Assembly (NCBI GenBank): GCA_002869185.1
Contig: PKTN01000010.1
Coordinates: forward strand, 105,274 to 169,273
Length of the DNA stretch: 64,000 bases
Source: Denitrovibrio sp.
GTDB taxonomy: Bacteria; Chrysiogenota; Deferribacteres; Deferribacterales; Geovibrionaceae
Reading direction: 5' to 3'
Both the position numbers and the translations under genes were made by a program. The notes below the pieces were generated by a model. It did no database searches and was not told the DNA's origin. It saw only the letters and a list, made by a program, of their open reading frames with translations. Of this stretch, positions 82 through 55,529 are shown piece by piece; the stretch's first letter is position 1, and every line of letters starts with the position of its first letter.

Positions 82-678
82 CTACTTTTCCCAACCGTCT
101 GGGTTGTTCTTGTAATAGTCTTTCATCTTTTCTGAATCAGGAACCATAGTCTCTTTACCAGGAGTCCATCCAGCAGGACAAACTTCACCGTGTTTACGAA
201 CGAACTGAAGAGCGTCAAGGTTTCTAATGATCTCATTCACGTTACGGCCGATACCGAGGTCGTGAATAAGCTCGAATTGTACGTTACCTTCTGGGTCGAT
301 AATGAATGTTCCACGTAGAGCCATACCAGGCTCAAGAAGAACACCATAATCTTCAGAGATAGATTTTGTAAAGTCAGCTACTAATGGGTAGTTGATATCA
401 CCGAGTCCGCCTTCGTTACGTGGAGTATTAATCCAAGCAAGGTGGCTAAACTTAGAGTCTGTAGAGACTCCGATAACTTCTGCGTCACGCTTCTGGAATT
501 CACCAAATGCGTCAGACATAGCGGTAATTTCAGTAGTGCATACAAATGTAAAATCCAATGGGTAAAAGAAAAGTACTACCCATTTCCCTTTATAATCTTC
601 GAGGTTGATACTTTTAAATTCTTTATTTACTACTGCGTCTGCTGTAAAAGTTGGTGCTTATTTTGTTACTAAGCTCAT
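82..678 (-). pseudogene. Typical 2-Cys peroxiredoxin (AhpC/TsaA-like), interrupted by an in-frame TAA at 658-660 (codon 7)
   Basis: ATG at 678-676 follows a GGAG RBS. The frame reads [52 protein letters not shown]. The peroxidatic Cys motif FTFVCTTE and the resolving Cys motif HGEVCPAGW are both present. The listed ORF 82-558 only starts at an internal TTG. Confidence 0.85.
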
Positions 679-775
679 TGGTCATCTCCTTTTAATCTGT
701 AATTTAAACAAGAATATATTAGAAGATAAAAATAGTCAAGATAAAAAAGACAAAAAAAGTCCGATTGGGTTTGTG

Positions 776-1318
776 TTAATAAATTCTGGTGTAATGGACT
801 AGCTCTGTCATGTCTTCCATGAAGAGTAGCTTATTGAAATAAGTTTGTTTTAATAGTCGTTTATCGTCTAGGAAGTGGAATAGGTTTATAGAATTGACAT
901 TAATGATATTAGCATCTTTAATGTATGTCCTGTTAGTTTCTATTGAGATGGTACCACTCGCTCTTTTTATATCGCAGCTATCTAAAGTCTCAATTCTTAT
1001 ACAGTCAAACCTATAAAAGTCAGAGTCTGGAGTGATTCTATAAGTGAAAGTTTTTTCACCGGCATTTTCGTATACATAGGTTTCTCTGAGGAAGATGACA
1101 CTCCCCTCTTTGTAACCTTCCATTTTAGCTGTGAAGGTTGTAGTTATAGCGCCATTAGTACTTTTTACTATCCCTTTGCCTTCGAATAGACCTATAAGGT
1201 CAGTCTCTATGTGGGCATTCTTGCCCATACCAATGCTGTATTCTGGGTGCGTGTATGCACATCCAGATAACAAGAAGGATGAAATGAGTATTAGTGCTAT
1301 GTATAATCTTTTATTCAT
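776..1318 (-). CDS. Lipoprotein of unknown function (possibly DUF3833-like)
   Basis: N-terminal signal peptide with lipobox (LLSGC). Size about 180 aa. The family assignment is from memory only. Confidence 0.5.
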   Translation of the reverse strand: MNKRLYIALILISSFLLSGCAYTHPEYSIGMGKNAHIETDLIGLFEGKGIVKSTNGAITTTFTAKMEGYKEGSVIFLRETYVYENAGEKTFTYRITPDSDFYRFDCIRIETLDSCDIKRASGTISIETNRTYIKDANIINVNSINLFHFLDDKRLLKQTYFNKLLFMEDMTELVHYTRIY

Positions 1319-1362
1319 AAAATAGATTATAAACTCTAGAACTATATATAGTCAAAGGTAAA

Positions 1363-1824
1363 TTAAAATTTCGGTTGTCTGACTATCTTACTCTTTTCTT
1401 TTCTCACTGTTTCAAGGTGTTCGTCCCATATGTACTTAGAAAGTATGTTTTCGTTTCTGATCTTTACATTTGTGAATTTAATGCCGCATAGTCCTTCTTT
1501 AACCCATACAATACGTCCGTATAAAGGTGTAAGAGCAAGATCGTTTTTATGCATAAATGACTCTTTACAAGAAAGACACTTTTCTCTACTCATCACTTCT
1601 GGAGTGGATATTTCTACCTCAAATCCGACATTTACTTTCCCATTATGGGCGATTCGAATACCACCAAGCGAAATATCTGTAGTTAGCGCACAGAAACAGT
1701 CGCCGTAAATAAATTTTTGTGTGTCTGGGTCGACACCTTCAACAAGAGTTACGCAAAAATGAAGAGATGCACTTACCCTTATGTGCTCTCGGCGATTCTC
1801 TTGAGTTCTTATATTATTGTCCAT
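1363..1824 (-). CDS. PilZ domain protein (c-di-GMP binding)
   Basis: RREHIRV (RxxxR) and DISLGG (D/NxSxxG) motifs. ATG at 1824 is preceded by GAGG. The longer listed ORF start at 1869 lacks an RBS. Confidence 0.65.
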   Translation of the reverse strand: MDNNIRTQENRREHIRVSASLHFCVTLVEGVDPDTQKFIYGDCFCALTTDISLGGIRIAHNGKVNVGFEVEISTPEVMSREKCLSCKESFMHKNDLALTPLYGRIVWVKEGLCGIKFTNVKIRNENILSKYIWDEHLETVRKEKSKIVRQPKF

Positions 1825-1901
1825 GTAAGCCTCTACTATGTAATATCGTACAAAAACGTGTGAACACAATAGAGAAAATTGTGAAAAGTAACTGACAGTG
1901 T

Positions 1902-6318: not shown

Positions 6319-6321
6319 CAA

Positions 6322-9181: not shown

Positions 9182-10003
9182 TTATATAAATGATTCGATT
9201 AGTTTAGATACATCTTTAGCCTTTATCTCTGTTGAGATTTCAGGGTGACGCTCATCGTATGATGGTCTATCGTATTTGCTATAAAGACCGAGATAATATT
9301 TATCTGGCTCAGTGGCAAGTGCTATAGCCTTTTCAGGTGACGGCATCTCTGTTAGTTTCTCTGTTCGCTCATCATAATAATCATACTTATAATCTCCGCC
9401 AAATGTTACACACGGCTGTAGAACGTCAATGATAGCGAAACCTTTGTGCTGTATACCTCCAGCGATAAGCTCTGCTAATTGTTCTGATTCTCCAGAATAC
9501 CCACGTGCCACGTATGTAGCTCCGTTAGCCATAGCGAGAACAAGTGGATTTATCTGAGCATCAACAACGCCAAACGGTGTCGATTTAGAGATAGTCCCTT
9601 CCACAGCAGTAGGTGCTGCTTGACCTGTAGTCAGTCCGTACACTTTGTTGTGATGGACTATATATGTGACATTAATGTTTCTACGGATTGCGTGGATAAG
9701 GTGTCCAACACCCATTCCGTAGCCGTCTCCGTCGCCACCATTTACTATTACGTTGAGCTCTGGATTAGCGAGTTTTACGCCTGTTGCCACTGGGAGAGTC
9801 CTTCCGTGTAGAGCGTGGAAAGCGTAACTACGAACATGGTTTACCATCTTACCAGAGCAACCGATACCAGAGACGAGAGCGATCTTTTGTGGCTCTAGTT
9901 CGAGTGAAGCGAGTGCTTTCTTTATGCTGTTCCATATGGCGAAGTTTCCGCAACCAGGGCACCATACAGGGATTTTACCAGTGTTATAAGTTAAAGGTTT
10001 CAT
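9182..10003 (-). CDS. 2-oxoacid:ferredoxin (acceptor) oxidoreductase, beta (TPP-binding) subunit
   Basis: Motifs WCPGCGNFAI and GGDGDGYGMG. The start overlaps the alpha-subunit stop (TAATG). Confidence 0.85.
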   Translation of the reverse strand: MKPLTYNTGKIPVWCPGCGNFAIWNSIKKALASLELEPQKIALVSGIGCSGKMVNHVRSYAFHALHGRTLPVATGVKLANPELNVIVNGGDGDGYGMGVGHLIHAIRRNINVTYIVHHNKVYGLTTGQAAPTAVEGTISKSTPFGVVDAQINPLVLAMANGATYVARGYSGESEQLAELIAGGIQHKGFAIIDVLQPCVTFGGDYKYDYYDERTEKLTEMPSPEKAIALATEPDKYYLGLYSKYDRPSYDERHPEISTEIKAKDVSKLIESFI

Positions 10004-11691
10004 TAAAGCACCTCCTTAACGTATTCTAGGACTTCTTCGGTAAAGAATGGTCGTCCATCGTATTTAAGGAATTTTTTATTAATCATAATTCCAGTATTTT
10101 CAGCGATTAGAGCACCTAGTTGTGCCGTCTTATTATTTTCGAACATAGTCAGGTTCTTACTTTTCATAAGTTCAGTCACTTTGTCCCAATCGATAGGGTG
10201 TACCGATGGGAAGTAGATAAAGTTAAACCTGTCATCAAACTTCATAGCTTCAAGCAGAACCTGTTTCATAGAGCCGAAGCATACAAAGGTCATCTCTGCA
10301 TCTTCTTTGCCTATAAGGTATGGTTGAGGCATTTCAGCAGTTACGAATGGTTGCTTGCTGAAACGTCTATCTGTCTGAGTTATTCTATTTTCTGCTGTGT
10401 CAGAGACAAAGCCTATTTCATCGTGTTCGTTACTACTAGCTATAAAGAGTCCACCATCTGTTCCGGGGATGCTACGTGTACATACACCATCTTTAGTCTC
10501 TTTAAATCTTTCGAAGTGAGCAACAGGGTTTTCTGAGTCGCCTTCAAAAATGAGTCCTCTATCTACCTCGCCGTATTCTGGGTCTAGCTCACCAGACATG
10601 AAGGCTGATTCTGATAAAAATTTATCTAAAAGAACTATAACTGGTATCTGATATTTCTCTGCTAGGTTGAAAGCATCAAAAGTAAATTTATAAGCCTCTT
10701 CGATATCCCCAGGTGTATATATAGCTCTAAGGAACTCACCTTGTGATGCATGGAGTGCGTATTGCAAATCAGCTTGCTCTGTCCATGTAGGAAGTCCTGT
10801 GGCTGGTCCCGGTCTCTGTGAGAGTGCCACAACTAACGGTATCTCAGTGATAGCAGCGAGTCCAAAGCCTTCGTTCATAAGAGCGAAGCCTCCACCTGAT
10901 GTACCCGTCATAGCTCTAGCCCCTGCGTGTGCAGCCCCTATTGCCATGTTTATTCCTGAAATCTCATCCTCTGCGTGTTTAACTGTGATGCCGAAATCAC
11001 GTGCTTGTTTAGCTAGGTAGTGCAGAATGGAGCTTGCTGGTGTCATAGGGTATGTGCTGAAGAAATTTACGCCAGCTCTGATAGCCCCTATGCATACTGC
11101 CTCGTTACCTGACATGAAGGCGTTAGTTTCACAATCGTCGTTAGATGTAAAATCAAGCCCTTCAAGTTGGCAACTGCAAGCATCGTAGCCAGCAATAGCA
11201 GCTTGAACGTTAGCCTCTGCAATCTTTTCTGGGTAGCTAGTTCTGACAACCTATTCCATGATCTCTTTAGGAAGACCAAGGGCCGCTATGGATGCTCCAA
11301 GCGCCACTGTGTTCTTCATAATATCTTTACCCTCTATGTCAGCAATTATCTGCTTGAGAGGTACGTCAATTTTTTTGCCATTTGCTGTGTCGCCCTTTTT
11401 GAGATTAGCAAAATCTCCGATAACTACTGTGTCATCTCTGAATTCTTCTCTCTCAAAGCAAACATCAGCGAGTGCGATATAAATATCAATATCCTTCATT
11501 GGTGCTGTGACTGGTGTTCTGGAGAATACTATCTGGTAGCTATTGTATCCACCTCTAATTATTGACGGGTACTCTAAGTATCCGTGGACGAAATATCCGC
11601 ATTTTTTGAGAATATTCGCAAAAACAGGACCAAGGGAACTGATTCCGAATCCAGCGGGACCACCCACTTTCCAAACAAATGATTTGTCCAT
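10003..11691 (-). pseudogene. 2-oxoacid:ferredoxin oxidoreductase alpha subunit (fused gamma-alpha type), interrupted by an in-frame TAG at 11251-11253
   Basis: ORFs 11251-11691 (gamma-like domain) and 10003-11115 (alpha domain, YPMTPASS) are in the same frame. Translation across the join reads ...LGLPKEIME-TAG-VVRTSYPEKIAEANVQAAIAGYDA...FMSGNEAVCIGA with no other stop. Confidence 0.8.
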
Positions 11692-12457: not shown

Positions 12458-13933
12458 ATGAAACACATAAATAAGTTATATTTATTGATAATAATTCTGT
12501 TGTCGACAGTTGTTTGTCATGGAGCAGATCTGGAAAAAATGTATCAGCCTTATTATAAGCAACTTGATAAAGTGCGAGAGAATAAACAAGAAGAGCTAGT
12601 GAGATACTTAAAGAGAGTCGAAAGCGTAGCGAAAAGTATTGGATCCGACAGTGAAATGAAAGATTTATTTATTATGAAACGCCACTTATATAACCAAACC
12701 AAAACAGCAGCAATGACTCAAGAGCAAAAAGATATACAACAGTTTCTACGTAATTCAATTATAGATAGGTATATGGACAGATATCTAGTTTTTTATGACC
12801 TTCTTTTCATAGATGAAGCTGGAGATATCTTTTATACGAACAGAAGGCAAGGGGATTATCGTAAAAACATTTTTAAAGGAAAATTGGCAAAAACAGCCCT
12901 TTCAAAGCACCTTAAGAATGATTCAAAATATTCATTTGTAGATTATCAAAATTTTGAGGTCTCTGCTGAACCTTCTGCATTCTTTATGGTACCTTTTGTT
13001 ATGAACGGGAAAAAACTAGGATGGTTTGTATTACAGTTTGCTGTCAATCGAATTGATGATATGTTTTCGATCGAGTCTAATCTAGGTAGGACAGGTGAAG
13101 TTTTTTTAGTCAATGAAGACCAATATATGCTCACTGATTCTCGATTTACAGCAGAAAGTACTATTTTAAAAAAACACCTCTCTAGCGATAATATTTTACC
13201 AAAATTTAAAGAGAAGTCTGGTCATAAATTAGTAGTAGATTATCGTGGTTTTAGAGCTCTTTCATCATTTAACGTTATTTCAGTCTTGGGAAGTAAATGG
13301 CTCATTATTGCGAAAATTGATGAAGATGAAGTATTAACAAGTGAATACAAAAAGATGTCTAATCGAAAACAGAATATTTTCATCAAAGATACTATTAATT
13401 CAATAAATATAAAAAAAGTGGAAAAGTATATTTTAAAGAAAGACATAGAAGTAGATATGGATGAGTTCAAAAGAGCAACCAATGGTCAAACACTATATAC
13501 TCACTGAGTTTCAACATGTACTGCATTGATCTTTAGCCTAAAAGAAAAATTTGCATATATGGCACATATGAGTGGATATGATAAAATCTACGGAGGAGAT
13601 GGTACAGATTTATTAAATCACATCATGAAGCGTATTGATGAATTTGATGCTGTTAGAAATGAAAAACGTTTGATAAAAGTCTATATTGTTTCGCCTAATG
13701 TCAATTATGATAAAAATATCATCGATGCTCTGCTTAGATGGGGACTGATGCTCTCTCAGATAAATATCATCGTTAATCCTCAAGCTAAGTATGCTGATAT
13801 CTCACATGACTATACAACTCAAAAGACACTTATAAACTGGAATGTACAGATGAAAAAAGTAAAATATGGAATGTATATGGATGATGTTCATTCTTTAGCT
13901 GAATATTATTACAGAACGCGGGCTTCAAATTAA
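12458..13933 (+). pseudogene. Signal peptide plus Cache-like sensor domain joined, across an in-frame TGA (13505-13507), to a CheD-like deamidase-fold domain
   Basis: ORFs 12458-13507 and 13526-13933 share a frame. Cache signature GRTGEVFLVNEDQYMLTDSRF. The junction TLYTH-TGA-VSTCTALIFSLKEKFAYMAHMS resembles the CheD active site TLGLGSCVAVC...GAMAHVML. The Cys lies before the first possible start codon of the second ORF. Confidence 0.5.
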
Positions 13934-31320: not shown

Positions 31321-31410
31321 AGTATCCTTTTGGTATGTATAGCACATAATAGTGCATACTTGCTTATTTGATATTTATGTTACTATAATAGATAAAGATA
31401 GGAGGACGCA

Positions 31411-32437: not shown

Positions 32438-32758
32438 TTATTTATAGTCATCTCTAGCTGGGTGGAATACATCTACTAGCTCGCAGTCAGTTATAGCAAT
32501 TCCGCTATGTACAGCATTCGGTGGGATAACCACTATGTCAGTCTTTTCTAATATTTTTGTGACGCCGTCGACAGTCATCTCAAATTTACCACTTATAAGT
32601 TTTGTCATCTGCTCATGAAAGTGTGAGTGTTCCGGTAATTTTGTACCAGCTTTAAAGCTCCACTGCGAAAGGGTCATCCCGTCAGTGTGTACCATTTTCG
32701 CTTCTGCACCTTCAATAATATTTTTTGTTTTGATTTCGTTCATATTAACAAATGGCAT
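32438..32758 (-). CDS. Cupin domain protein
   Basis: Motifs LPEHSHFHEQ and IPPNAVHSG. Length 106 aa. Confidence 0.7.
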   Translation of the reverse strand: MPFVNMNEIKTKNIIEGAEAKMVHTDGMTLSQWSFKAGTKLPEHSHFHEQMTKLISGKFEMTVDGVTKILEKTDIVVIPPNAVHSGIAITDCELVDVFHPARDDYK

Positions 32759-32908
32759 AGTTGTTCCCCCTAATGAGTATGATTATAAAACAATAATTGC
32801 AAAAATGTAAAACTTTATAAATAGCCTTATTTACAAGTAAGAGAAGCTGATATAGAATATCATTTGCGTTTTATTATTTCTGTTTTGTTTTAATGGAGGA
32901 GGGATACA

Positions 32909-37739: not shown

Positions 37740-37782
37740 TTGTACTACCTATATTTCGATGACCATTTGGTCAGTAATTAGT

Positions 37783-39759: not shown

Positions 39760-39760
39760 A

Positions 39761-41614
39761 TTATATCTTTTTAAGTACTCTTTTATTATCTTTGTTTATG
39801 AAAAGCCCTGTTTTGTCGAGCTGTTCCATCATAGGGACGAGAATCTTTCTCGGTAGCTCAAAGTGCTTTTTCATCCCTTGTAAATCGACGTGACCTACAG
39901 CTTCGCACTCTTGAGTAGCCTTATCTATGAATGTATTCAGCATCTCCATTGTGACATGATTGTTACCTTCGATATTTTTCGCAAGGCTTCTATTGCACAA
40001 GTATTGGAGACATTTTTGTATCTTTTGTTCAGGGATGCCCATCTTTTCGGAAAGGCGGGCTTGGTTCGAAAGTGTAGGGTCTGTCATCATTAGTGTCAGT
40101 ACGGATGTGGCTAGTTCGTCAAAAGGATCTCTCTCTTTCTTCTTTAGCATCTGCCCATCAAATATGTAGTTTTGTTTTTGAGCCCTTTCAATGATTCGAT
40201 TAATGATATCGAAACGGACAGGCTCAGGAAGCTTATTGCATGTATGCTGTATTTTGCTGATAGCAAGGCTCTCTTGCTTGTTGAGAATCTCTATAGTGTT
40301 CTCAACGTAGTTCTCTAGGTTTTTGTTATCAAGGATAAACCCTTGAAAATTAGCTATATTAAGCTGAGCAAGCTTCATAGTTAGCTCATTTCTGATTAGT
40401 CCAGAGAACTGTATAGGTTCAGGTAACTCTAGTCCACAATGAAATATCTCTACGACCTTTTTTATTGCATTATCATAGTCATGTATACTTAGAAGGTTCA
40501 TAATATCTTTGGTATATTTTCTATTCGGATAGGTCTCTGCGATGCCTAATACTCGACCACCAGCGACACTCACTTGAGGACTTCCAAGTCTAATTATGAA
40601 TGGTTCGTCAAAGTATGGTGTTATCTCTTTGTCTAGCTTGATAAAGCAGTTTGCACTCTCACCAGGTGACAGTTTCTTTATGTCATAAAAGATGATTTTC
40701 GCTTCGCAGGATAATGCGCCTATATATAATGAATATGACTTGTTATGCTTTATAAGTACCTTGTCGGATATACCTTCAAAGATGTTTAGATTAGCATAAA
40801 TTCCTTTGGTTGTTTGAATCTTTGGGTTGTCTGAGAGAATGTCTCCACGTTTTATGTCATTGGTCGAAAAATCAGGTAGGTTAAGTGCTGTCCTTTCACC
40901 AGCTACAGATTTGCTGACAAGTTTATCGTGCACTTGGATGCTCTTTGTTTTGGCAGACTTGAGATTTCTTGTATTGTAAATGAGAGTGTCGTTTGTTACG
41001 GAGCCGAATAACGACGTTCCAGTGACAACTGTTCCACTCCCTTTTATGCTGAAAACTCTATCAGCACGGACAACATAGCATCTCTTTTGAAGTTTTGGCT
41101 GAACCTTGCCAGCACATATACCAATAGCCTCTTTTAACTCTTTTATACTAGCTGGATTTCTTGTGTCAGTTTTAATTATATCTATAATTTTTATTTTACT
41201 ATTTTCGAATAGCTCAACGATCTCTTCTTTTACCGTGTCGATCTGTTCGGTGGAGCACAGGTCTGATTTTGTGATAGCGACTACACAATAGGGAACGCCA
41301 ATCGTCCTGATAATGTTATAATGCTCGATAGTTTGAGGTTTGATACCTTCGCGACCATCCACACAGAAAAGTACCGAGTCAAAGCCGACAGAGCCAGCGA
41401 TCATAGTCTTTACAAGTCCTTCATGCCCTGGCACATCTACAAATGAGATGTTCGCCTGTTCAGTCTCCATCCCTGCGAAGCCTAGTTCTATGGTAATCCC
41501 TTTCTCTTTCTCTTCTTTTAGCCTGTCTGGGTCTTTTCCTGTCATGGCTAGAACGAGGGAAGATTTACCATGGTCAATGTGTCCTGCAGTACCAAATATG
41601 ACACTCTTTTTCAT
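39761..41614 (-). CDS. selB: Selenocysteine-specific translation elongation factor
   Basis: G-domain motifs [18 protein letters not shown] and TKSD, followed by a long winged-helix C-terminus. It overlaps selA by 4 nt. Confidence 0.85.
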
Positions 41615-42966
41615 ATAATACGCTCCAAAGCGTTTTTAATAGTTTCGAAGTCCTTTTTGTCGAGTGTGCGAACATCGAGTATAAACTTATCATCTGTTAC
41701 TCTACCGATGATAGGTACTATATTATTTCGCATAAGCTTTTCTATCTGCTGAGGTTTCCTTTTTGGTATGTTCAGGGCTACCCCGTATGATGGAATTTCT
41801 GCTGTGGGGCAGCTTCCTCCGCCAATTGTCGATTTAACCTCTATTATTGACGTAGCGCAAGGGAGCATTTCTGCTAGTCTTTTAGCTTTTTCTGATAATT
41901 CTGGTAGCTCTGCTGATAGCATCTTGTTGACAGGTATGTCGCCTGCAGAGCCATCTATATATTTACGAAAGACAGCTTGAAGGAGTGCTAGAGTTAGCTT
42001 GTCCACACGGAACATCCTCATTAGCTGGTTCTTTTTTATTTTGGATATTAGTGCTTTACTGCCGATGATAATGCCAGCTTGGGTTCCACCTAGCATCTTG
42101 TCACCGCTGAAGGAAATAAGATCGAATCCTGTCTTTACTATGTCAGGTATAGTTTGGTCATCACATATGCTGTCAGGAAGAACCTTTCTGAATAGTCCGC
42201 TACCAGCATCATAATACGACATAACATCAGCCTCTTTGGCAGATTGAGCTATCTCACCAAGAGTAGCTTCTTCACTGAAACCGATTATTTCGTAGTTACT
42301 TTTATGTATTTTCATCATCATAGCGGTCTTGTTAGATACCGCCTTTGAATAGTCATCTACTCTCGTCTTATTAGTTGTGCCCACTTCTTTGAGCTTAGCA
42401 CCGCTTCTTGTCATTACGTCAGGTACACGGAAGCTTCCGCCTATCTCGACCAACTCTCCACGGCTTACTATCACTTCTTTGTTTTTCGCAAAAGTGTGAA
42501 GTATTAAAAAGACAGCGGATGCGTTGTTGTTGACGATGAGTGCGTCATCTGCACCTGTGAGGATTCGGAGGTATTCCGACACGTGGTGGTACCTGTCTCC
42601 ACGTTTTCCTTTTGCTACGTCATACTCAAGGTTGGCATAACCACATGCGATATCCATTGCCTCTTTGCATACATCTTCTGGTAGAGGGGATCTGCCTAAG
42701 TTTGTATGTATAGGGACACCTGTCGCGTTTATTACTTTATAAAGTGTTCCTTTAAGTGTGCGCTCGTATTCTGAATTTATTTTATCTGTTATCGCCTCAT
42801 GCTCAGGCATTGTGGCTGACTTCTCTATTAGATCGCGTCTGATATTTTCCAGAACTGTTCTGGTGGCTATCTTGACGAGCTCTGGGTTCATACCAGAGAA
42901 GGCTTTGTCTTGTATCAGTTTATCTATTTTTGGCAATTGCCTTAGTAGTGTGTTTTTGTTATCCAT
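41611..42966 (-). CDS. selA: L-seryl-tRNA(Sec) selenium transferase
   Basis: N-terminal LRQLPKIDKL and PLP-Lys motif FSGDKMLGG. The start is taken as ATG 42966. The ORF is open up to 43074. Confidence 0.82.
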   Translation of the reverse strand: MDNKNTLLRQLPKIDKLIQDKAFSGMNPELVKIATRTVLENIRRDLIEKSATMPEHEAITDKINSEYERTLKGTLYKVINATGVPIHTNLGRSPLPEDVCKEAMDIACGYANLEYDVAKGKRGDRYHHVSEYLRILTGADDALIVNNNASAVFLILHTFAKNKEVIVSRGELVEIGGSFRVPDVMTRSGAKLKEVGTTNKTRVDDYSKAVSNKTAMMMKIHKSNYEIIGFSEEATLGEIAQSAKEADVMSYYDAGSGLFRKVLPDSICDDQTIPDIVKTGFDLISFSGDKMLGGTQAGIIIGSKALISKIKKNQLMRMFRVDKLTLALLQAVFRKYIDGSAGDIPVNKMLSAELPELSEKAKRLAEMLPCATSIIEVKSTIGGGSCPTAEIPSYGVALNIPKRKPQQIEKLMRNNIVPIIGRVTDDKFILDVRTLDKKDFETIKNALERII

Positions 42967-43101
42967 AGTATATTTCCGCCCAATCAGTGATTCTACTATA
43001 TTACTCATAATATGACAAACCGCTTTTTTGTGACATTTTTTCTTACGAAAAGAGGAGTGATGATATATATTCAAGGTGTTATGAAAAACTAGGAGACGGA
43101 A

Positions 43102-44202
43102 ATGTATAATATAGATGAAAAACAGATGAATAAAGATTTGAAAGAGCTCTATGACAGGGCTGAACCATCTACTAAAGAGTTCGAAACCTCTAAATATATT
43201 AAATCAAGATTAGACGAGATGGGGCTAACTTATAAGGAAGCATTCGTCACTGGTCTGTTCGGCACACTTGATGTTGGAGCAAAAAAGACTATCGCACTTC
43301 GTTCTGACATGGACGCTCTCCCTTATAACGAAGCTTGCACAGAATATCGCCACCTTTGTGGTCACCACGCAAACATGACAACACTATTGACAGTGTTGGA
43401 AGTTATGGTTAAGATGAAAGATAAACTAAATGTGAACATAAGATATATATTCCAACCAGCGGAAGAGCTTGTAAGTGGCTCTGTTGAGATGATCAATGCG
43501 GGATGCATGGAGGGTGTGGACGAGATATTAGCATCACACACTTCCCCTGATATTGAATACGGTTTTGCTGCCCTTGTTGAAGGCGGAACTATGGCAGGAT
43601 CAAACCATTTTGATATTGTCTTCAAGGGTATGTCGACCCACGCAGCTATGCCACACATGGGTACAGATACTGTTACTGCAGCGGCTGAATATATAATGAG
43701 CTGTCAGACTATACTTACACGTAAAAAGTCTCCGATACTCGATGGTTTGATCTCTTTTGGTTCTATTAATGGTGGTTCTGCTGCTAATATTTTACCTGGT
43801 GAGCTTAGGCTGGCTGGGACATATAGGCACTTTGACAAATCTGTTAAGCAACTTATCGAACATGGTATGAAAGTACGCTTAAAGGCTATTGAAGATTTTT
43901 ATGGTATCATGGGTGAATTCACGATACATGAAGGGACTCCTCCTGTTATATGCGACAAGAGTATAGTTAGTAAATTACATAAGATATGTGAAGAGAAGGG
44001 GATAGTAGTTACAGAGTACGAGAAGAGTATGGGTGGCGAAGATTTCGCTTTCTATCTCGAGCATGCTCCAGGTGCTTTCATCTGGCAGGGTGTAAGGCAG
44101 GGTGATTCGCATCCTCCACTTCATAATTCTAAATATACAGTGCCAGAGGGCGCAACTCTTCCAGCGGTCAAACTGCTCTCAGAATACCTCTTAGCACAAT
44201 AA
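43102..44202 (+). CDS. M20-family amidohydrolase (N-acyl-L-amino acid amidohydrolase/hippuricase-like)
   Basis: Motifs RSDMDALP and CGHHA. The dimerisation-domain pattern is typical of M20D. Confidence 0.7.
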   Translation: MYNIDEKQMNKDLKELYDRAEPSTKEFETSKYIKSRLDEMGLTYKEAFVTGLFGTLDVGAKKTIALRSDMDALPYNEACTEYRHLCGHHANMTTLLTVLEVMVKMKDKLNVNIRYIFQPAEELVSGSVEMINAGCMEGVDEILASHTSPDIEYGFAALVEGGTMAGSNHFDIVFKGMSTHAAMPHMGTDTVTAAAEYIMSCQTILTRKKSPILDGLISFGSINGGSAANILPGELRLAGTYRHFDKSVKQLIEHGMKVRLKAIEDFYGIMGEFTIHEGTPPVICDKSIVSKLHKICEEKGIVVTEYEKSMGGEDFAFYLEHAPGAFIWQGVRQGDSHPPLHNSKYTVPEGATLPAVKLLSEYLLAQ

Positions 44203-44212
44203 AGGTGACAAT

Positions 44213-45352
44213 GTGACTAGTGATATAGCTATCGAAGCCCTAAAACTAAGATGTGTTAAGAAGATGGACGAGACTATAATGGAGCGTATCTACGCTGGCG
44301 CAGGTAGCATAAAAGATGCACTCAGGCTAGATATGGCAACATTAAAGAGTTTTGGGATTAAGAAAGAGGTAGCTGAGAATATCATCACGTTAGATATAGA
44401 TAAGGAACTATTCAAAAGCGAGCTTGAAGCACTTAAAAAAGTTAGTGCTAATATTATATGTATAGATGATGACGAATATCCAGAAATGTTGCGAGAGACG
44501 AAGGGTGCTCCATGCCTCCTTTTTGTCCGTGGTGATGCCGAAGTTATGCTTAAACCGTCTATAGCCATGGTTGGTTCTAGGAACGCTAGTAGAGCTGCTT
44601 GTGACTTTAGCAAACGACTTGGGGCTGATTTGGCTGAGGCTGGGTTTAATGTTGTCAGTGGGTTCGCTAGTGGTATAGACGTTAACGCACATCTTGGTGC
44701 AGTAGAAAAGGGCGTTACTACTGCTGTTATGGGTTGTGGTGTTAATCACTTCTTCCCAGAGATCAACCGCAAACATATAGATAAGGTTATAGATAATGGA
44801 TGTATTATAACAGAATACCTTTCGAACATACATCCAGCTGCGAGGAATTTCCCTCGTAGGAATCGTATAATAAGTGGTCTCTCCTATGGCGTGATAGTCG
44901 TTGAGGCATCAGACAGGAGTGGTTCACTAATCACAGCGAGGCTTGCAGGTGAGCAGGGGCGTGATGTTTATGCGGTACCAACTTTTCCTGATAATAGAAA
45001 TAATGCTACAAACGCCCTCCTGAAAGAGGGTGCAACACTCATCGAATCATATTATGACGTCATAGAAGAGCTGAAATACAACATTTCAGATATCAAAGAA
45101 GTTGACAAGCAAGAGACGAGTGTATTAGAGTTTGATAGCCCTGAACAAGCTAAGCTCTTTGACCTATTGATGAGGGGAACGCTGAATCCGGACGAACTCA
45201 GTGCCAAGTCAGGGTTTGATATTGAGCAGGTAGTAATAAACCTTGCACAAATGGAGCTTGAAGAATATGTTGTCAGGGAAATCGACGGTAAGTACCGGGC
45301 TGCCGGAGGACTCAATGGACAAAATTGTCATAGCACTAAATCTTGTAATTGA
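44213..45352 (+). CDS. dprA: DNA-processing protein DprA (Smf)
   Basis: Motifs VGSRNAS, GFASGIDVNAH and SGSLITA. GTG start follows AAGGTGA. Confidence 0.85.
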   Translation: MTSDIAIEALKLRCVKKMDETIMERIYAGAGSIKDALRLDMATLKSFGIKKEVAENIITLDIDKELFKSELEALKKVSANIICIDDDEYPEMLRETKGAPCLLFVRGDAEVMLKPSIAMVGSRNASRAACDFSKRLGADLAEAGFNVVSGFASGIDVNAHLGAVEKGVTTAVMGCGVNHFFPEINRKHIDKVIDNGCIITEYLSNIHPAARNFPRRNRIISGLSYGVIVVEASDRSGSLITARLAGEQGRDVYAVPTFPDNRNNATNALLKEGATLIESYYDVIEELKYNISDIKEVDKQETSVLEFDSPEQAKLFDLLMRGTLNPDELSAKSGFDIEQVVINLAQMELEEYVVREIDGKYRAAGGLNGQNCHSTKSCN

Positions 45353-45731
45353 CTACTTAGAACTGAGTGAAAAAACGACTGAAATTGATATCAAAGATTA
45401 CCTCTTTAATACGGGATTTGATGACCATGAGGTTAGACAAGTTCTTGGTGTACTTGATATATCTAATTTTGGTGGAAACCTTTGGTTCAGAGTTTTTACA
45501 AAGAAAGAAAAGAAGATGCTCACTTATGAAGCTATATGTTTCTTGCAAAAGCTTCACCTTTCTGGCATTCTCGACCCACTTGGTCTTGAAGATGTTATAG
45601 ACAACGCCTTGGCCGGAGATGGGTATAAGGTGGATGTCGATTCTATAAAACACCTTGCTCTCTATAGCCTTATGGAGCGTAAGTCTCTCTATTCCTCTGG
45701 AGTAGAGGATGACGAAGAATATTTGAATTGA
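45315..45731 (+). CDS. smg: Smg protein (DUF494)
   Basis: It sits in the conserved dprA-smg-topA arrangement. ATG at 45315 follows GGAGGA. It overlaps the dprA 3' end. Confidence 0.65.
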   Translation: MDKIVIALNLVIDYLELSEKTTEIDIKDYLFNTGFDDHEVRQVLGVLDISNFGGNLWFRVFTKKEKKMLTYEAICFLQKLHLSGILDPLGLEDVIDNALAGDGYKVDVDSIKHLALYSLMERKSLYSSGVEDDEEYLN

Positions 45732-45744
45732 TACGGAATAATAT

Positions 45745-48093
45745 ATGCCTAAAAATCTAGTAATAGTGGAATCACCAGCAAAAGCGCGAACAATCGAGAA
45801 ATACCTTGGACGTACCTATAAGGTAATGGCTTCTGTAGGTCACGTGAAAGACCTTCCTGCCAGTAGTCTTGGTGTTGATATTGAAAACAATTTCGAACCT
45901 AAATACTCTATCATAAGGGGTAAAAAGAAGGTTATCGATGAACTTAAGAAAGTAGCTAACTCAGCTACTAACATCTATCTGGCGCCTGACCCCGACCGTG
46001 AAGGGGAGGCTATCGCTTGGCACATAGCCGAAGAGATGGGTAAGAAGAATAAAGATAAGATACACCGTGTACTCTTTAATGAGATCACAAAAAAAGGTGT
46101 TGAAGACGGTATCAAAAACAAAGGTATCATAAACGAAAACAGAACCAATGCACAGCAGGCGAGACGTATCCTCGACAGGCTTGTTGGTTATCTTGTCAGT
46201 CCACTCCTTTGGAAAGCTCTTAAATATGGTCTTTCCGCTGGGCGTGTTCAGTCCGTCGCTCTTAGACTCCTTGTCGAAAGGGAAGAAGAGATAGAGAAGT
46301 TTAAGCCGGAAGAGTATTGGCTTATCGACGCTATCTTTGACGGTGGTAAAAAAGCAGCACTCAAAGCCAGACTTGAAAAGAAGGATGGCAAAAAGTATAA
46401 AGTCAAAACTGGGGAAGAGGCAGAGCAGGTCTTGTCAGCACTTAAAGCTTGTGACTATAATGTCGCTGAGGTTATCCGCAAGGAGACCTATGAACGTGCA
46501 CCACTCCCTTTCATCACATCGAAGCTTCAGCAGGAAGCAGCGAGGAAACTTAGCTTTTCCGCTAAAAGGACTATGATGCTCGCACAACGCCTTTACGAAG
46601 GTGTAGAGCTTGGTAACGAAGGTCCTGTTGGTCTCATCACATACATGAGAACTGACTCCACAAGGGTCTCTCCTGACGCTGTGGCAGAGGCTAAAGATTA
46701 TATCACTAAGCAGTATGGCGAAAACTACCTCACAAAGGGTAGAAAGACTGCTACTAAAAAGAAGAATGTTCAGGATGCTCACGAGGCTATACGTCCGACA
46801 TCTGTTTCTATCACACCTGATAGTGTTAAAAACATTCTTGATGCTGATCAATATAAACTTTATAAACTGATCTGGGATAGATTCGTCGCTAGTAATATGT
46901 CTGACGCTGTCTATGACCTGAACACTATAAATATCGCAAATGGTCCTTACTCTCTGAAATCTCAGGGTAAAGTTCTTAAATTTCCAGGATTCCAAACACT
47001 CTATATTGAAGGTAAGGATGAGAATGGAGAGAAAGACCAAGAGGTTATCTTTGACGTAAAAGAGGGTGAGAAACTTAAAGCTCAGAAAGAAGAGAGCAAG
47101 CAGATGTTTACTCAGCCACCTGCAAGATATTCAGAAGCGACACTAGTTAAAACACTTGAATCAGAAGGGATTGGTAGACCGTCTACTTATGCGGCGATCA
47201 TCTCTACACTTATAGATAGAACATACGCAAGTATGGAAGAGAAGCGCTTTAAGCCTACAGAGCTTGGGCGTGTTGTTTGCTCACTGCTGGTTGCTAACTT
47301 CGATAGGATTTTTGATCCGAAGTTTACTGCTGGTATGGAAGAGGAACTCGACGGTATTGAAGATGGTACGCTTACATGGAAAGGTGTTCTCGCTGATTTC
47401 TATGAGAAGTTTAAACCTGATCTTGAAAAGGCAGAGAAGCAGTTCTCCGCTAACCTTACTGTCGATGTGAAGTGTCCTACATGTGGCAAAGACCTCACTA
47501 TCAAACACGGTCGTAACGGTAACTTTGTTGCTTGCACTTCATACCCTGAATGTAAATTTACATCAAACTATGAAAGGCTTGAAGACGGCTCATTTAAACT
47601 TGTACCAAAAGAGGAAGATAAGCCTTCTGGTATCGAGTGTGAGAAATGTGGCAAAGAGCTTGTATTCAAAAGAACTCGTTTCGGTGAAGTACTGGCTTGC
47701 CCTGGATATCCTGAATGTAAAAACATCAAAAATTACGTTAAATTACCTGACGAAACTATAAAAGTTCTTTCTGCTGGCGAAGAGATAGGAACACCTTGCC
47801 CTAAATGTGGTAGTGGTCTTACAATCAAAGGTGGACGTAATGGTATGTTTATCGGATGTACCAAATACCCTGATTGCGATTTCACTGGTAATATGGAAGT
47901 GAACGAGAAAGGGGACATCATACCTAAGTTTGACAAGGTTGATGAGAATGTTAAATGTGAGAATTGTGGTAAACCTATGACACTCAAGAAGAGTCGTCGT
48001 GGTAAGTTCTTCGCATGTACAGGTTACCCAGAATGCAAAACTGCAAAGTCAACAATAGTTCTGGAAGACGGCACTATTACTGTTAAAGAATAA
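45745..48093 (+). CDS. topA: DNA topoisomerase I with four C-terminal C4 zinc-ribbon repeats
   Basis: TOPRIM motif VIVESPAKARTIEKYLG, active-site region ITYMRTDS, and repeated CPxCG...C motifs. Confidence 0.92.
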   Translation: MPKNLVIVESPAKARTIEKYLGRTYKVMASVGHVKDLPASSLGVDIENNFEPKYSIIRGKKKVIDELKKVANSATNIYLAPDPDREGEAIAWHIAEEMGKKNKDKIHRVLFNEITKKGVEDGIKNKGIINENRTNAQQARRILDRLVGYLVSPLLWKALKYGLSAGRVQSVALRLLVEREEEIEKFKPEEYWLIDAIFDGGKKAALKARLEKKDGKKYKVKTGEEAEQVLSALKACDYNVAEVIRKETYERAPLPFITSKLQQEAARKLSFSAKRTMMLAQRLYEGVELGNEGPVGLITYMRTDSTRVSPDAVAEAKDYITKQYGENYLTKGRKTATKKKNVQDAHEAIRPTSVSITPDSVKNILDADQYKLYKLIWDRFVASNMSDAVYDLNTINIANGPYSLKSQGKVLKFPGFQTLYIEGKDENGEKDQEVIFDVKEGEKLKAQKEESKQMFTQPPARYSEATLVKTLESEGIGRPSTYAAIISTLIDRTYASMEEKRFKPTELGRVVCSLLVANFDRIFDPKFTAGMEEELDGIEDGTLTWKGVLADFYEKFKPDLEKAEKQFSANLTVDVKCPTCGKDLTIKHGRNGNFVACTSYPECKFTSNYERLEDGSFKLVPKEEDKPSGIECEKCGKELVFKRTRFGEVLACPGYPECKNIKNYVKLPDETIKVLSAGEEIGTPCPKCGSGLTIKGGRNGMFIGCTKYPDCDFTGNMEVNEKGDIIPKFDKVDENVKCENCGKPMTLKKSRRGKFFACTGYPECKTAKSTIVLEDGTITVKE

Positions 48094-49377
48094 ATGGATA
48101 AAATCGTAAATATAGTTGGTGGCGGTCTTGCTGGTTGTGAGGCCGCTTACTTTTTGGCAGAGAAGGGGTTTAGCGTAAAGCTTTACGAGATGCGCCCGCA
48201 AGTTCAAACCCCTGCACACGAAACCGAATTCCTCGGTGAGCTTGTTTGCTCCAATTCCCTTAAAAGCACATTGCCCGACACATCTAGTGGCTTACTAAAA
48301 GCTGAAATAGAAATCCTCGGCTCAGTTGTGTTAAAAGTTGCTGAGCAGTGTAAAGTGCCTGCAGGTAACGCTCTGGCTGTTGATAGGACAGATTTCGCTA
48401 AAGGGATGGACGACATTATCCGCAACCACCCAAATATCGAAGTGATAGGCGAGGAGCTGACAGATATACCAGCTGACAGACCTTGCATCATAGCGACCGG
48501 TCCACTCACATCTGACAAAATGGCAGAGAGCATAAAAAGACGCTTTGGTGGCGGTCTATACTTCTTTGATGCAATAGCTCCAGTCATTTCATTCGATTCT
48601 GTTGATATGGAAAAAGCATTCTTTAAGAGCAGATGGGAGAAGGGTGACGATGATTATCTGAACCTAGGGATGAACAAAGAGGAATACGAACTCTTCTATA
48701 ACGAGTTAATAGGGTCTGATCAGGTTGAGTTTAAAGATTTTGAAAAACTGAATGTTTATGAAGGTTGTATGCCTATCGAAGTGATGGCAAAACGTGGTCC
48801 TCAGACACTCACTTTTGGTCCTTTCCGCCCTGTTGGTCTCAGACACCCAGTTACCGAACAGAAATATTATGCTGTTATACAGCTTCGTAAAGAGAATAAA
48901 GAGGGGACAGCTTATAACCTTGTTGGCTGTCAGACTAAGATGAAGATAGGCGAGCAACAGCGTGTTTTTCGTTTAGTTCCGGGGTTAGAAAATGCAGAAT
49001 TTCTTCGTTATGGCTCTATACACAGAAACACATACATACATTCACCGGGTAATCTGAAGCGTACATTTCAGGTTATAGGTGATGAGAAACTATATTTTGC
49101 TGGGCAGATAACTGGTGTTGAAGGCTACTTGGAGTCAGCGGCATCAGGCTTACTCGCGGCTTATTCTCTTGTTAATCCAGAATTTGATGGCTTTCACGAA
49201 GAGACAGCTCTAGGTGCACTTGCACGTCATGTATCAGGTGAGGTTGCTGAGAACAAGAAAGAGTTTGTTCCGTCTAATTTTCACTTCGGCATGGTTCCGG
49301 GGCATGGTAAGAAGATTCGCGATAAAAAACTTAAGAAACGTATGTATGCCGAAAGAGCACTCTCTCATTACAAATAA
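48094..49377 (+). CDS. trmFO: Methylenetetrahydrofolate-tRNA-(uracil-5-)-methyltransferase
   Basis: Motifs GGGLAGCEAA, CSNSLK and YFAGQITGVEGY. Confidence 0.88.
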   Translation: MDKIVNIVGGGLAGCEAAYFLAEKGFSVKLYEMRPQVQTPAHETEFLGELVCSNSLKSTLPDTSSGLLKAEIEILGSVVLKVAEQCKVPAGNALAVDRTDFAKGMDDIIRNHPNIEVIGEELTDIPADRPCIIATGPLTSDKMAESIKRRFGGGLYFFDAIAPVISFDSVDMEKAFFKSRWEKGDDDYLNLGMNKEEYELFYNELIGSDQVEFKDFEKLNVYEGCMPIEVMAKRGPQTLTFGPFRPVGLRHPVTEQKYYAVIQLRKENKEGTAYNLVGCQTKMKIGEQQRVFRLVPGLENAEFLRYGSIHRNTYIHSPGNLKRTFQVIGDEKLYFAGQITGVEGYLESAASGLLAAYSLVNPEFDGFHEETALGALARHVSGEVAENKKEFVPSNFHFGMVPGHGKKIRDKKLKKRMYAERALSHYK

Positions 49378-49512
49378 GTTTTGTATTTCTGCGTCAGTCT
49401 CTTTTCAGTAAAACTCACATATTATATATATGCTCGTTTCACATTCAAAGAATCTTCCTTGAACTACTCGCTTATTTCTAATGATAAAATACTCTTTAAC
49501 TTTTATATATGC

Positions 49513-49554
49513 GTCATTCTGAGTGTAGTGAAGAATCTCAGTCCTCATGATGAC
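49513..49554. repeat. Short copy of the GTCAT..TGAG inverted-repeat element
   Basis: GTCATTCTGAG...CTCAGTCCTCATGATGAC. The right end is an exact 13-nt inverted match to 6832-6844. Confidence 0.45.
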
Positions 49555-49606
49555 GAGTGAGTTTGTAGACTCACATCGTGAGTCGTATAAGCGTGGGAGT
49601 ATATTA

Positions 49607-49674
49607 AATTATCTCGAAGTGAGCCACAAGGTGCTAACCTTGAATTATCTCGAAGTAAGCTACAAGCTGCTGAC
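49607..49674. repeat. Tandem direct repeat, two 32-nt copies with a 36-nt period
   Basis: AATTATCTCGAAGTGAGCCACAAGGTGCTAAC compared with AATTATCTCGAAGTAAGCTACAAGCTGCTGAC gives 28/32 identical. Confidence 0.7.
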
Positions 49675-49763
49675 TAATTGAACATGGATGTTCATACACG
49701 AAGCGAACCTGTTAAGGTTCTAGCGGAGTGAGAGCTAAGTCTGACTTGTTAGATTTAGCGAGT

Positions 49764-49795
49764 ATTGAAAAACTACACGATGTAGGTTTTTCAAT
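49764..49795 (-). terminator. Hairpin terminator candidate directly after the full-length DUF1460 reading frame
   Basis: The minus-strand RNA reads AUUGAAAAACCUACA-UCG-UGUAGUUUUUCAAU. It begins 3 nt after the TAA at 49799-49801. Confidence 0.45.
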
Positions 49796-49798
49796 AGT

Positions 49799-50539
49799 TT
49801 ATTGAGGGCGGAATACGATGATACCTTTGATCTCTTTGACATAATCCTTGAAGGGATAGTCGGTCACTTTCATAAGCTTAGATTATGTATTCCTAAAGAA
49901 CTCACCTTTTTTATTCTTGATAAAGATACCCGTATGGGTAACATCTAGACCTTGCTTGTCGCTATAAATACCGATGTAGTCTCCTGTCTGGAGAAGTTTA
50001 ATTACATCTTTGCTTACCTGATTACCCGGAATATAGTTGACCATTCGCATGGTCTGTGGAACATTTTTAAGACAGTTAGTTTTATCGGATTTTCTGTTAA
50101 TTATTTTTTCAACAGTTGTAGCACCCGGTAGTCCAGATGTGATGTCTCTGACTGTGTTGTTTTCACCAGAGACCCAGTCTGTAAAGAAATGCTTACGTTT
50201 TGCATAGTTAACTTCACCGTTGAAATATCTTACTTTTTTCAGATTCTCGATAAAATTATCAACTCTGACAGAGAGTCGGAGTGCTTCAACATAGTCTAAA
50301 AACGTAAAACAATCCATCCCGTCAAGGTTAATGACAAGCTCTTCTTTATCATCAGGGCTCCCTTTCATTGTGCGAGCCATGTATGGTGTGTCGATAAATT
50401 TGCTAGATATGAAAGCTATACGTTCGCCGACTTTATCTATATGTACGGATTCAGTAAGAATCATATTTGCTTTATTTGTCTGCCACCCGACAAGAAAGAC
50501 GAGTGTCGCTATCAGAATTAATTTATATATTGTTTTCAC
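49799..50539 (-). pseudogene. DUF1460 (N-acetylmuramoyl-L-alanine amidase-like) protein, interrupted by an in-frame TAA at 49883-49885
   Basis: Signal or anchor sequence MKTIYKLILIATLVFLVGW. The frame continues ...GEFFRNT-TAA-SKLMKVTDYPFKDYVKEIKGIIVFRPQ, matching my recollection of the family C-terminus (..HASS..kV.....Y....GI.v.R). Confidence 0.6.
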
Positions 50540-51956: not shown

Positions 51957-52018
51957 CATCCTCTATTATATGTAATCAACATGCTGCACACTCATAGTTG
52001 AACTCAGAAAGAAAAAAA

Positions 52019-52654
52019 TTATTTTTCTACGTCTGCAATAACTTCAAACTCACCCGTTTCTAAGTTGAAATTATAAACTTAGCCAGTACCTATAATGTAA
52101 TACCAACCGTAAAGATTAATCTTTCCTTCGTCGTACCTTTTTCTAATGTATGGATAGCTGAGCAGGTTAGACATCTGCTTAACGATATTTAGCTGTTCTG
52201 TGATCCACTCTCTATGTGCTTTGTCTGCATCTGGGTGTTTAAGTAGGACTTCGTTCTTTACACTTTGAGCTTGCTCAAGCCAGTGGGCAACGTTTGGAAG
52301 CTGCGCAATTTCTTGTTCTTCAAAATACAAGGCAGCGCATCCACCGCAGTTTGAATGACCACAAACTACAATATTCTCAACCTCAAGAGCGTTGACAGCA
52401 TATTCGATAGCTGATGTCGTCGAAGCGTATTCAGCGGATATACGATATGGTGGGACGATGTTTGCAATATTGCGAACGACAAAAAGCTCACCTGGCAGAG
52501 TCTTAGTTATAAGACCAGGAACAACCCTTGAATCTGAACAACCGATAAATAGTGTGTGTGGTGCCTGTTCTCTGTCTAGTGATTCAAATAATTTCTTATT
52601 CTTTTCAAAACTCGTTTCACGAAATTTTATAGTTCCAGTAAATAACTTATCCAT
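52019..52654 (-). pseudogene. Beta-class carbonic anhydrase, interrupted by an in-frame TAA at 52079-52081
   Basis: Motifs CSDSRV and GHSNCGG. The frame continues ...LYGWYYIIGTG-TAA-VYNFNLETGEFEVIADVEK, resembling the CynT-type C-terminus [25 protein letters not shown]. Confidence 0.78.
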
Positions 52655-52703
52655 AGTGAACTCCAAAACATAAACAAAAACTGTTCTATAATTACTATAC
52701 CAC

Positions 52704-52739
52704 AAAAAAAAGGCCGAAGTATATAATAACTTCGACCTT
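52704..52739 (-). terminator. Rho-independent terminator after pckA
   Basis: The minus-strand RNA reads AAGGUCGAAGU-loop-ACUUCGGCCUU followed by a U-run of 8. Confidence 0.75.
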
Positions 52740-52761
52740 AATTTAGTAATTTATTTAATTA

Positions 52762-54351: not shown

Positions 54352-54808
54352 TCTGTCCTCCTGAATATGTTATGGATATTAAAATAGTTTTGCAAACTTT
54401 AGGGGGAGTGTACTTTAATATGGTGGTATGTTCAAGCATAAATTTAACTAACAAATGGTCTTAATCCCTTTTCTGATACAGGTTTGAGTGTAATAAGCGT
54501 TATTAGTTTTTCCGATACTGAACATATGAGCATTAAAGTAAACTATAGCTTTTCTATTGATTACAATAAGTTAAAATGACTAAAAAGATACTTTGTAATA
54601 CTAATTAACATTTATAAATTATTTATAATAATATTGTAGACTAATTATACGAGTACTATGCTTTTCATATTAAATTTACTAAATATTTATAATCTTTTAT
54701 TGAAAATTAAATAGTCTAGATAAAATCTATAAAGAGACAAAAAAGGTCTTTAAGTTGATTAGGTACTGAACTATCATATAAATAGATTTTTATTGAAAGC
54801 CTTATTTA

Positions 54809-55057
54809 TTGGAGGTAGTCATGGCATATGCAATTTCTGCATGTGGGGGATCTGGCTCAGGGGCAAATGTTTATAGTGACGAAGGTACTTACGAGGCTTC
54901 TGTAGATAGTGACGGAAACGCAGTGCCTCTTATTCTTACAAGCGACTCAGAGGGGCGTGCAACTGTTACTTCCCTGTCATCGGGTAACGTCTATACTGTT
55001 CAGACTGTGGATTTGGATGGCAACCCTGTTGGTGATATTACACTTGGTTTTTTATAA
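54809..55057 (+). CDS. Small putative lipoprotein fragment (possibly the N-terminal part of the downstream DUF1566 gene)
   Basis: AISAC lipobox-like sequence near the N-terminus. Ends at TAA 55055-55057. The same frame stays open for 45 more codons. Confidence 0.3.
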   Translation: MEVVMAYAISACGGSGSGANVYSDEGTYEASVDSDGNAVPLILTSDSEGRATVTSLSSGNVYTVQTVDLDGNPVGDITLGFL

Positions 55058-55112
55058 GAGAGTGTGTCAGGAACTTCTGTCGATTTAACTCAGCCTCAGT
55101 CAAGGGTAGCTG

Positions 55113-55529
55113 GTGACGACATCACTGCTGATGATATGGGTATTTTGCAGGTTAGTGATACAGATGAGGAAAAATTTGTCAATTACTACAAATAATCTTA
55201 TGTGGCAGGATTCAGCTATAGTGGCGTCGAATCAGAAGACATGGTCAAACGGCATAAGCTATTGTGAGAATCTGGATTTCGCTAGCCATACGGACTGGAG
55301 GCTCCCAAACGTCAACGAGTATCGCTCAATTATGGACTATACTCAGGCTGATTATCTAAACACTATATTCGAAAATGTGAACGCCACAGGGCAGTACTGG
55401 ACATCAACAACTAAGGCTGCAGATAGTGATTTTGCGTATTCGATATCGATACCTTTTAAAGGAAATCTGGTGGACAGTATAAAAGCTTTGGATAGTTTGG
55501 ACATAAGATGTGTCCGCTCTACAGACTAA
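55113..55529 (+). CDS. DUF1566 (Lcl C-terminal) domain protein; start and N-terminus uncertain
   Basis: Motif NLMWQD...TWSNGISYCENL...HTDWRLPNVNEYRSI. No signal peptide is present in this frame. Confidence 0.55.
   Translation: MTTSLLMIWVFCRLVIQMRKNLSITTNNLMWQDSAIVASNQKTWSNGISYCENLDFASHTDWRLPNVNEYRSIMDYTQADYLNTIFENVNATGQYWTSTTKAADSDFAYSISIPFKGNLVDSIKALDSLDIRCVRSTD

Follow-up and report, generated by a model that had tools for sequence, protein, structure and literature searches.

In-frame stop codons in eight conserved genes of a Denitrovibrio sp. contig: probable consensus errors from oxidative guanine damage

A stretch of 64,000 nucleotides from Denitrovibrio sp. (assembly GCA_002869185.1, contig PKTN01000010.1, positions 105,274 to 169,273; the whole stretch is referred to as the window here) raises the question of why conserved genes, among them uvrB and the genes for a peroxiredoxin and a methyl-accepting chemotaxis protein (MCP), should each be cut by a single in-frame stop codon. 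An earlier note on this DNA had listed nine such codons and one lost start, and had offered three explanations: (a) a burst of G:C to T:A changes caused by hypermutation or by a library artefact, (b) uniformly scattered errors or deliberate perturbation, and (c) nonsense suppression or readthrough. Our analysis showed that sibling assemblies of this organism carry the interrupted genes in intact form, and we consider it very likely that the stops are consensus errors in the deposited metagenome-assembled genome (MAG), caused by oxidative guanine damage of the 8-oxoguanine (8-oxoG) type, and that they represent no biological feature. All of the evidence consists of assembled consensus sequences, and the sites were read at the assembly level.

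The comparison set comprised ENA ERZ794999 NODE_106 (85 kb, coverage 24), the JGI/IMG 3300007102 contig Ga0102541_1044566 (173,582 bp), and the Logan contigs of SRR5894289. A full-length UvrB (P0001, 658 aa) is encoded on three of these public contigs, one from each source. The UvrB fragment of the window is 100% identical to this protein, while its identity to Denitrovibrio UvrB proteins is 87-89%. The ENA contig was tiled by four look-ups over window positions 1-27418 and 27783-64000. Alignments of the window with the sibling assemblies were gap-free throughout, with identities of 99.87-99.97%; no indel was found over the 63,636 bases aligned with the ENA contig, nor in the JGI and Logan alignments. 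The statement that frameshifts are almost lacking therefore holds even more strongly than the earlier note had put it. Pseudogene decay was rejected, given the lack of indels and the undamaged genes of the sibling assemblies.

All nine of the listed stop codons are present in the window, and recognisable protein sequence runs on in frame beyond eight of them (for example, VVAD*VRKLA in the MCP). These eight sites, the lost start and the ninth codon are given below with their strand, the original residue and codon, and the change as read on the plus strand.

82-678, minus strand: peroxiredoxin; TAA at 658-660 for S7, TCA in siblings; G to T at 659.
10003-11691, minus strand: 2-oxoacid:ferredoxin oxidoreductase alpha subunit (562 aa when intact); TAG at 11251-11253 for E147, GAG in siblings; C to A at 11253.
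12458-13933, plus strand: dCache_1 protein (491 aa when intact); TGA at 13505-13507 for G350, GGA in ENA; G to T at 13505.
30910-31347, minus strand: HxlR regulator (145 aa when intact); TAA at 31048-31050 for E100, GAA in siblings; C to A at 31050.
31411-32397, plus strand: zinc-ADH, acuI-like (328 aa); ATT at 31411-31413, lost ATG start; G to T at 31413.
32909-34546, plus strand: MCP-hemerythrin (545 aa in ENA); TAG at 33743-33745 for E279, GAG; G to T at 33743.
37783-39759, minus strand: uvrB (658 aa when intact); TAA at 37969-37971 for S597, TCA; G to T at 37970.
49799-50539, minus strand: AmiA-like/DUF1460 protein (246 aa when intact); TAA at 49883-49885 for S219, TCA in siblings; G to T at 49884.
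52019-52654, minus strand: beta-carbonic anhydrase (211 aa when intact); TAA at 52079-52081 for E192, GAA in siblings; C to A at 52081.
55055-55057, plus strand: TAA, the ordinary stop of a called 78-aa gene; outside the phenomenon.

All eight interrupted genes are intact in the sibling assemblies, and the ENA and Logan contigs have a sense codon at every stop that they cover. TAA replaces TCA in three of the genes and GAA in two; TAG replaces GAG in two, and TGA replaces GGA in one. The ninth codon, which the earlier note itself had flagged as uncertain, shows no difference between assemblies; its in-frame continuation reaches another stop after 46 codons, and the next gene (55200-55529) lies in a different frame. 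The count of nine interrupted genes is thus reduced to eight. The reading of ATT at 31411 as a lost ATG was correct, since the acuI-like protein starts with Met in two relatives (L011 and L012). So was the tracing of the MCP stop to a near-invariant Glu: E279 is confirmed in the ENA contig and is the Glu of the invariant VVADEVRKLA motif in relatives. The change at 33743 is also present in the JGI/IMG contig. UvrB S597 is likewise invariant, in nine relatives.

A tabulation of the substitution spectrum, as proposed in the earlier note, was made against the sibling assemblies and was dominated by one class. The window differs from ENA NODE_106 at 50 positions, 45 of them G:C to T:A and five transitions, with not a single T to G or A to C change, so that the G:C to T:A burst suggested under (a) is borne out. 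The 45 transversions extend from 537 to 63293, are read on the plus strand as G to T in 26 cases and as C to A in 19, and include all eight stops and the loss of the ATG start; no indels accompany them. By effect, they fall into 24 missense, 9 synonymous, 8 nonsense, 1 start-loss and 3 intergenic changes. All five of the other differences are silent or intergenic, compared with 12 of the 45 transversions (Fisher p = 0.003).

The sibling assemblies themselves are not equally clean. No private variants were found in the ENA and Logan contigs. The JGI contig carries 11 variants, every one of them G:C to T:A, of which 8 are private and 3 (at 33743, 36442 and 53612) are common with the window. The derived alleles of the two are therefore not nested (42 window-private, 8 JGI-private), and the probability that the three common alleles coincide by chance is about 1e-6. 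One of the JGI-private changes is a nonsense mutation (L002 13254, window 36506) that splits PBP1 into 411 + 334 aa, and the IMG gene calls for sample 3300007102 are thus also affected, at a lower density.

To see what the changes do to proteins, expected counts were derived from every possible G:C to T:A change in the coding layout of the window, without and with context weighting, as follows.

Nonsense: 8 observed, 4.5-6.2 expected.
Missense: 24 observed, 30-33 expected.
Synonymous: 9 observed, 4.6-6.2 expected.
Intergenic: 3 observed, 2.3 expected.
Start loss: 1 observed, 0.1 expected.

Nonsense changes are not depleted, and the transversions have never been filtered by selection. Three of the nine synonymous transversions fall in a 1-kb patch of the AlaRS gene (57452-58466). 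Seven missense sites were compared with nine related genomes of the Deferribacterales, and at six of them the change hits a residue that is invariant in every relative covering it. These six are peroxiredoxin P48 (FVCPTE), UvrB Q95 (YYDYYQPEAY), TopA G236, PBP1 P433, MCP G322 and ADH L154. The stops do not cluster significantly towards the C-termini (Kolmogorov-Smirnov p = 0.33). Eight broken genes among 54 is far above what a normal genome contains, and it is what about 45 random G:C to T:A hits yield.

The changed guanines have a marked sequence context. In 39 of the 45 transversions, a purine stands immediately 3' of the affected G, where 22.7 such cases would be expected (p = 5.6e-7); the four dinucleotides are represented as follows.

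GG: 17 observed, 8.0 expected, 2.1x.
GA: 22 observed, 14.7 expected, 1.5x.
GC: 4 observed, 9.7 expected, 0.4x.
GT: 2 observed, 12.6 expected, 0.16x.

This ranking tracks the ease of one-electron oxidation of guanine. When the changes were pooled over all assemblies and both of the species considered in this work, a 3' purine was present in 60 of 66. The base 5' of the changed G tends to be a pyrimidine, which gives the pattern pyrimidine-G-purine, and no motif was found beyond the -1 and +1 bases.

On the plus strand, G to T outnumbers C to A by 26 to 19 overall; a runs test was not significant (p = 0.68), and there is no transcription-strand bias by hand tally (coding-strand G to T 21, C to A 21). 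Eleven consecutive changes at 32705-49884 are all plus-strand G to T (p about 0.016, for a run picked post hoc); a single damaged template strand may have given rise to long stretches of this kind. Cumulative GC skew rises across the whole window, which suggests that all of it lies on one replichore with the plus strand leading.

The same kind of change was found in a second species, Denitrovibrio sp. BM701. In a genome contig scan with UvrB, only other species were matched, and BM701 was the best of them (88%). Two Gly to Cys changes, one of which lies in Walker A, separate the UvrB encoded on its contig PKTM01000015.1 (locus L011) from the JGI/ENA version of that protein. Over 21,974 bp, L011 and ENA NODE_9 (coverage 189) differ at 14 positions without any indel; 12 of the 14 are G:C to T:A, each with a purine 3' of the G, and the remaining pair is silent. 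Three of the changes, all G to T relative to the 189x ENA assembly, affect proteins as follows.

L011 10118: UvrB G40C (Walker A, GVTGSGKT to GVTCSGKT).
L011 10907: UvrB G303C.
L011 12595: PBP1 E192*.

The density of changes is 7.1e-4 per bp in the window and 5.5e-4 per bp in BM701, despite an eight-fold difference in coverage. The load is therefore not specific to one organism, and a lineage-specific mutator of the MutY type is unlikely. In the syntenic BM701 stretch, the run of changes is on the strand opposite to that of the window run at 32705-49884; such opposite preferences in two syntenic species speak against an effect of the replication strand. In the JGI version of the BM701 organism, DprA has a G to T nonsense change of its own (L092 4815), by which the protein is split into 157 + 224 aa.

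As for the source of the sequence, the variant proteins of the window are already in GenBank, labelled 'MAG: ... [Denitrovibrio sp.]' and assigned to a 173,766-bp contig with locus tags C0603_*. They include the following.

PLX66811.1: truncated 349-aa dCache protein.
PLX66830.1 and PLX66831.1: the two MCP halves.
PLX66804.1: ClpC variant.
PLX66839.1: TopA variant.

Because these same variants stand in GenBank, no alteration was made to the window once it had been deposited. When the ClpC and CheX open reading frames of the window were looked up as exact proteins, no match came back, although the ClpC variant exists in the NCBI database, and two metagenome contig scans with invariant 40- and 41-mers gave none either. 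Other PLX accessions are assigned in PMC6797604 to the MAGs that Barnum et al. 2018 obtained from perchlorate-reducing enrichments, whose reads are stated to be in PRJNA387015 (bioRxiv 10.1101/781625). The window is most probably a deposited MAG contig from that study. The whole-genome shotgun and isolate names suggest that the BM701 MAG comes from it as well.

These observations (the spectrum, its context, the lack of selection, the absence from the ENA and Logan contigs, the difference between the authors' two assembly versions, the window and the JGI contig, and the recurrence in a second species) were all made directly on the sequences, and we have proposed a route by which they could arise. 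Guanines, chiefly the 5' G of GG and GA steps, would suffer oxidation in the sequenced DNA and become 8-oxoG-type lesions. A polymerase would then pair A opposite the lesion, giving G to T, or C to A on the other strand, and such changes would enter the authors' assembly consensus at a rate of about 1.8 per 1000 G:C pairs. Since 10-14% of random coding G:C to T:A changes create TAA, TAG or TGA, about 45 hits in 64 kb give some 5-8 nonsense codons without any frameshift. Three parts of this route are inferred: the identity of the lesion as 8-oxoG, its origin outside heritable evolution (at culture harvest, extraction, shearing or amplification), and the passage of minority alleles into the consensus. 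Previous work has described C to A / G to T artefacts from 8-oxoG formed during shearing, strongest at CCG to CAG and present at a low allele fraction, where read 1 shows G to T and read 2 shows C to A (Costello et al. 2013, PMC3616734). In later methods of the laboratory that produced the enrichments, DNA was extracted with PowerSoil and a 70 °C lysis step, and reads were processed with Sickle, corrected with SGA and assembled by MEGAHIT with --no-mercy --min-count 3; the same paper describes chlorite and hypochlorite as strongly oxidising chlorine oxyanions, related to perchlorate (bioRxiv 10.1101/781625). A chemical source of the damage is thus plausible.

Several points weigh against oxidative damage in the consensus as the whole explanation. 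An 8-oxoG artefact is defined by its allele fraction and read-orientation bias, and the evidence here is at the level of the consensus. Library artefacts normally have a low allele fraction, yet the consensus is affected at both 24x and 189x. That the window and the JGI contig have three alleles in common must come from shared reads, from hot spots or from a real common ancestor; the simplest reading combines the first two. Finally, the cultures respired perchlorate, and chlorite and hypochlorite are oxidants strong enough that part of the damage could have taken place in living cells.

One alternative is that the changes are real mutations, produced in vivo by reactive chlorine species or by a MutY, MutM or MutT defect, and that the assembly caught one genuine haplotype. 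None of the genes mutY, mutM and mutT lies within the window. Such a history would give the observed spectrum, which in MutY-deficient strains is mostly C to A (PMC10995721); it would also predict by shared ancestry that derived alleles are common to two assemblies, as three are. Chlorite and hypochlorite do damage cells oxidatively, and the five silent, natural-looking single-nucleotide polymorphisms in the window indicate that its consensus is not simply identical to that of the siblings. However, living cells would have to tolerate nonsense changes at or above the neutral expectation and missense changes in invariant catalytic motifs, and extrapolation to the whole genome would leave about 17% of genes knocked out. 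The derived sets are not nested, none of the changes occurs in the ENA or Logan contigs, two syntenic species have local strand preferences of opposite direction, which speaks against a replication-strand effect, and an equal load in a second species at 189x means that no single mutator lineage can be responsible. We therefore regard a real haplotype of this kind as unlikely; among the causes that had been named under (a), artefact or damage fits better than a mutator lineage, given the lack of selection, the clean ENA and Logan assemblies, the non-nested alleles and the second species. There is also a small chance that reactive chlorine in the enrichment oxidised bystander guanines and left heritable mutations in a sub-population, or lesions in cellular DNA. 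If so, the whole community would be under a strong 8-oxoG mutagenic load from the respiration of chlorine oxyanions, and several MAGs would show it.

The two remaining explanations account for far less. Generic substitution noise or deliberate perturbation, uniform over the window, would scatter changes along its whole length without regard to selection, as is seen, but it would not produce 45 G:C to T:A changes with no T to G or A to C, nor the strong preference for a 3' purine. Moreover, the variant proteins were already in GenBank, and the same signature is carried by the JGI contig and the BM701 MAG. Explanation (b) is thus contradicted by the narrow spectrum and the sequence context, and we hold it to be very improbable. 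Programmed recoding, whether by suppression, readthrough, selenocysteine or pyrrolysine insertion or a reassigned code, would explain in-frame stops in conserved genes with homology continuing downstream, and the window does contain selA and selB. But siblings at about 99.9% identity encode ordinary Ser, Glu and Gly at these sites, all three stop codons are involved while the same codons terminate neighbouring genes normally, and the TGA derives from GGA (Gly) and not from a Cys or selenocysteine position. A tRNA scan found no tRNA genes in the window, tRNA-Sec included, and no Rfam family, SECIS among them, reached its gathering score there. The sense codons in the sibling assemblies and the use of three stop codons refute explanation (c), and recoding has next to no credibility here.

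Some features of the neighbouring genes deserve mention. The genes selB and selA (39761-43008, minus strand) lie directly upstream of uvrB, an order that is kept in the Deferribacterales loci L011-L017. The interrupted MCP (32909-34546) has an MCP signalling domain and a C-terminal hemerythrin domain and is conserved in relatives; this architecture suggests a putative oxygen- or iron-sensing receptor. The NAD-specific glutamate dehydrogenase gene (1569 aa; 59883-64000, running off the end of the window) is very large and has five missense and two silent differences and no stop; these differences lie beyond the range of the earlier note, which ended at 55529, and belong to the same load. In the AlaRS gene (56052-58688), five differences lie within 57452-58466, all synonymous (2 C to A, 1 G to T, 1 G to A and 1 T to C). 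The patch has the appearance of natural polymorphism between strains, or of a short recombined segment, and it suggests that the MAG consensus came from a slightly different strain mix than the ENA, JGI and Logan contigs.

For users of such data, our results mean that these public MAGs carry G:C to T:A consensus errors at about 0.06-0.07%, as seen in this window and in 22 kb of BM701. Within the window, roughly every sixth gene is broken, and the 24 missense changes are spread over 13 of its 54 genes, so that a quarter to a third of the genes, approximately, are altered in this way. A load of this kind inflates pseudogene counts, can mimic recoding or hypermutation, and corrupts catalytic motifs such as the UvrB Walker A of BM701 and the peroxiredoxin FVCPTE. 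Clean ENA/MGnify contigs should be preferred, or the MAGs re-polished with reads. Should the damage prove biological, the changes would directly record mutagenesis by reactive chlorine within a microbial community.

Compared with known systems, the window resembles reductive or host-restricted genomes that accumulate pseudogenes in having many interrupted genes (8 of 54, plus one lost start), but it differs from them in its zero indels, its single mutational class and its intact siblings at about 99.9% identity. It shares in-frame stops inside conserved genes with systems of stop-codon recoding; unlike them, it involves three stop codons, has sense codons in siblings, and contains no suppressor tRNA or recoding element. 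The dominance of G:C to T:A, with many nonsense changes and no frameshifts, is also found in GO-system mutators such as the E. coli mutY mutation-accumulation lines (PMC10995721). In contrast to those, the load here occurs in the MAGs of two species, its alleles are not nested and are absent from independent assemblies, and purifying selection is not apparent even at invariant catalytic residues. The 8-oxoG artefact described by Costello et al. lies mostly below 20% allele fraction in reads, whereas the present changes stand in the deposited consensus, and the context here (pyrimidine-G-purine) is broader. In other respects the two agree: both consist of G:C to T:A changes, both are enriched where G precedes G (CCG to CAG there, GG and GA here), and both are independent of the biology of the organism and absent from independent assemblies.

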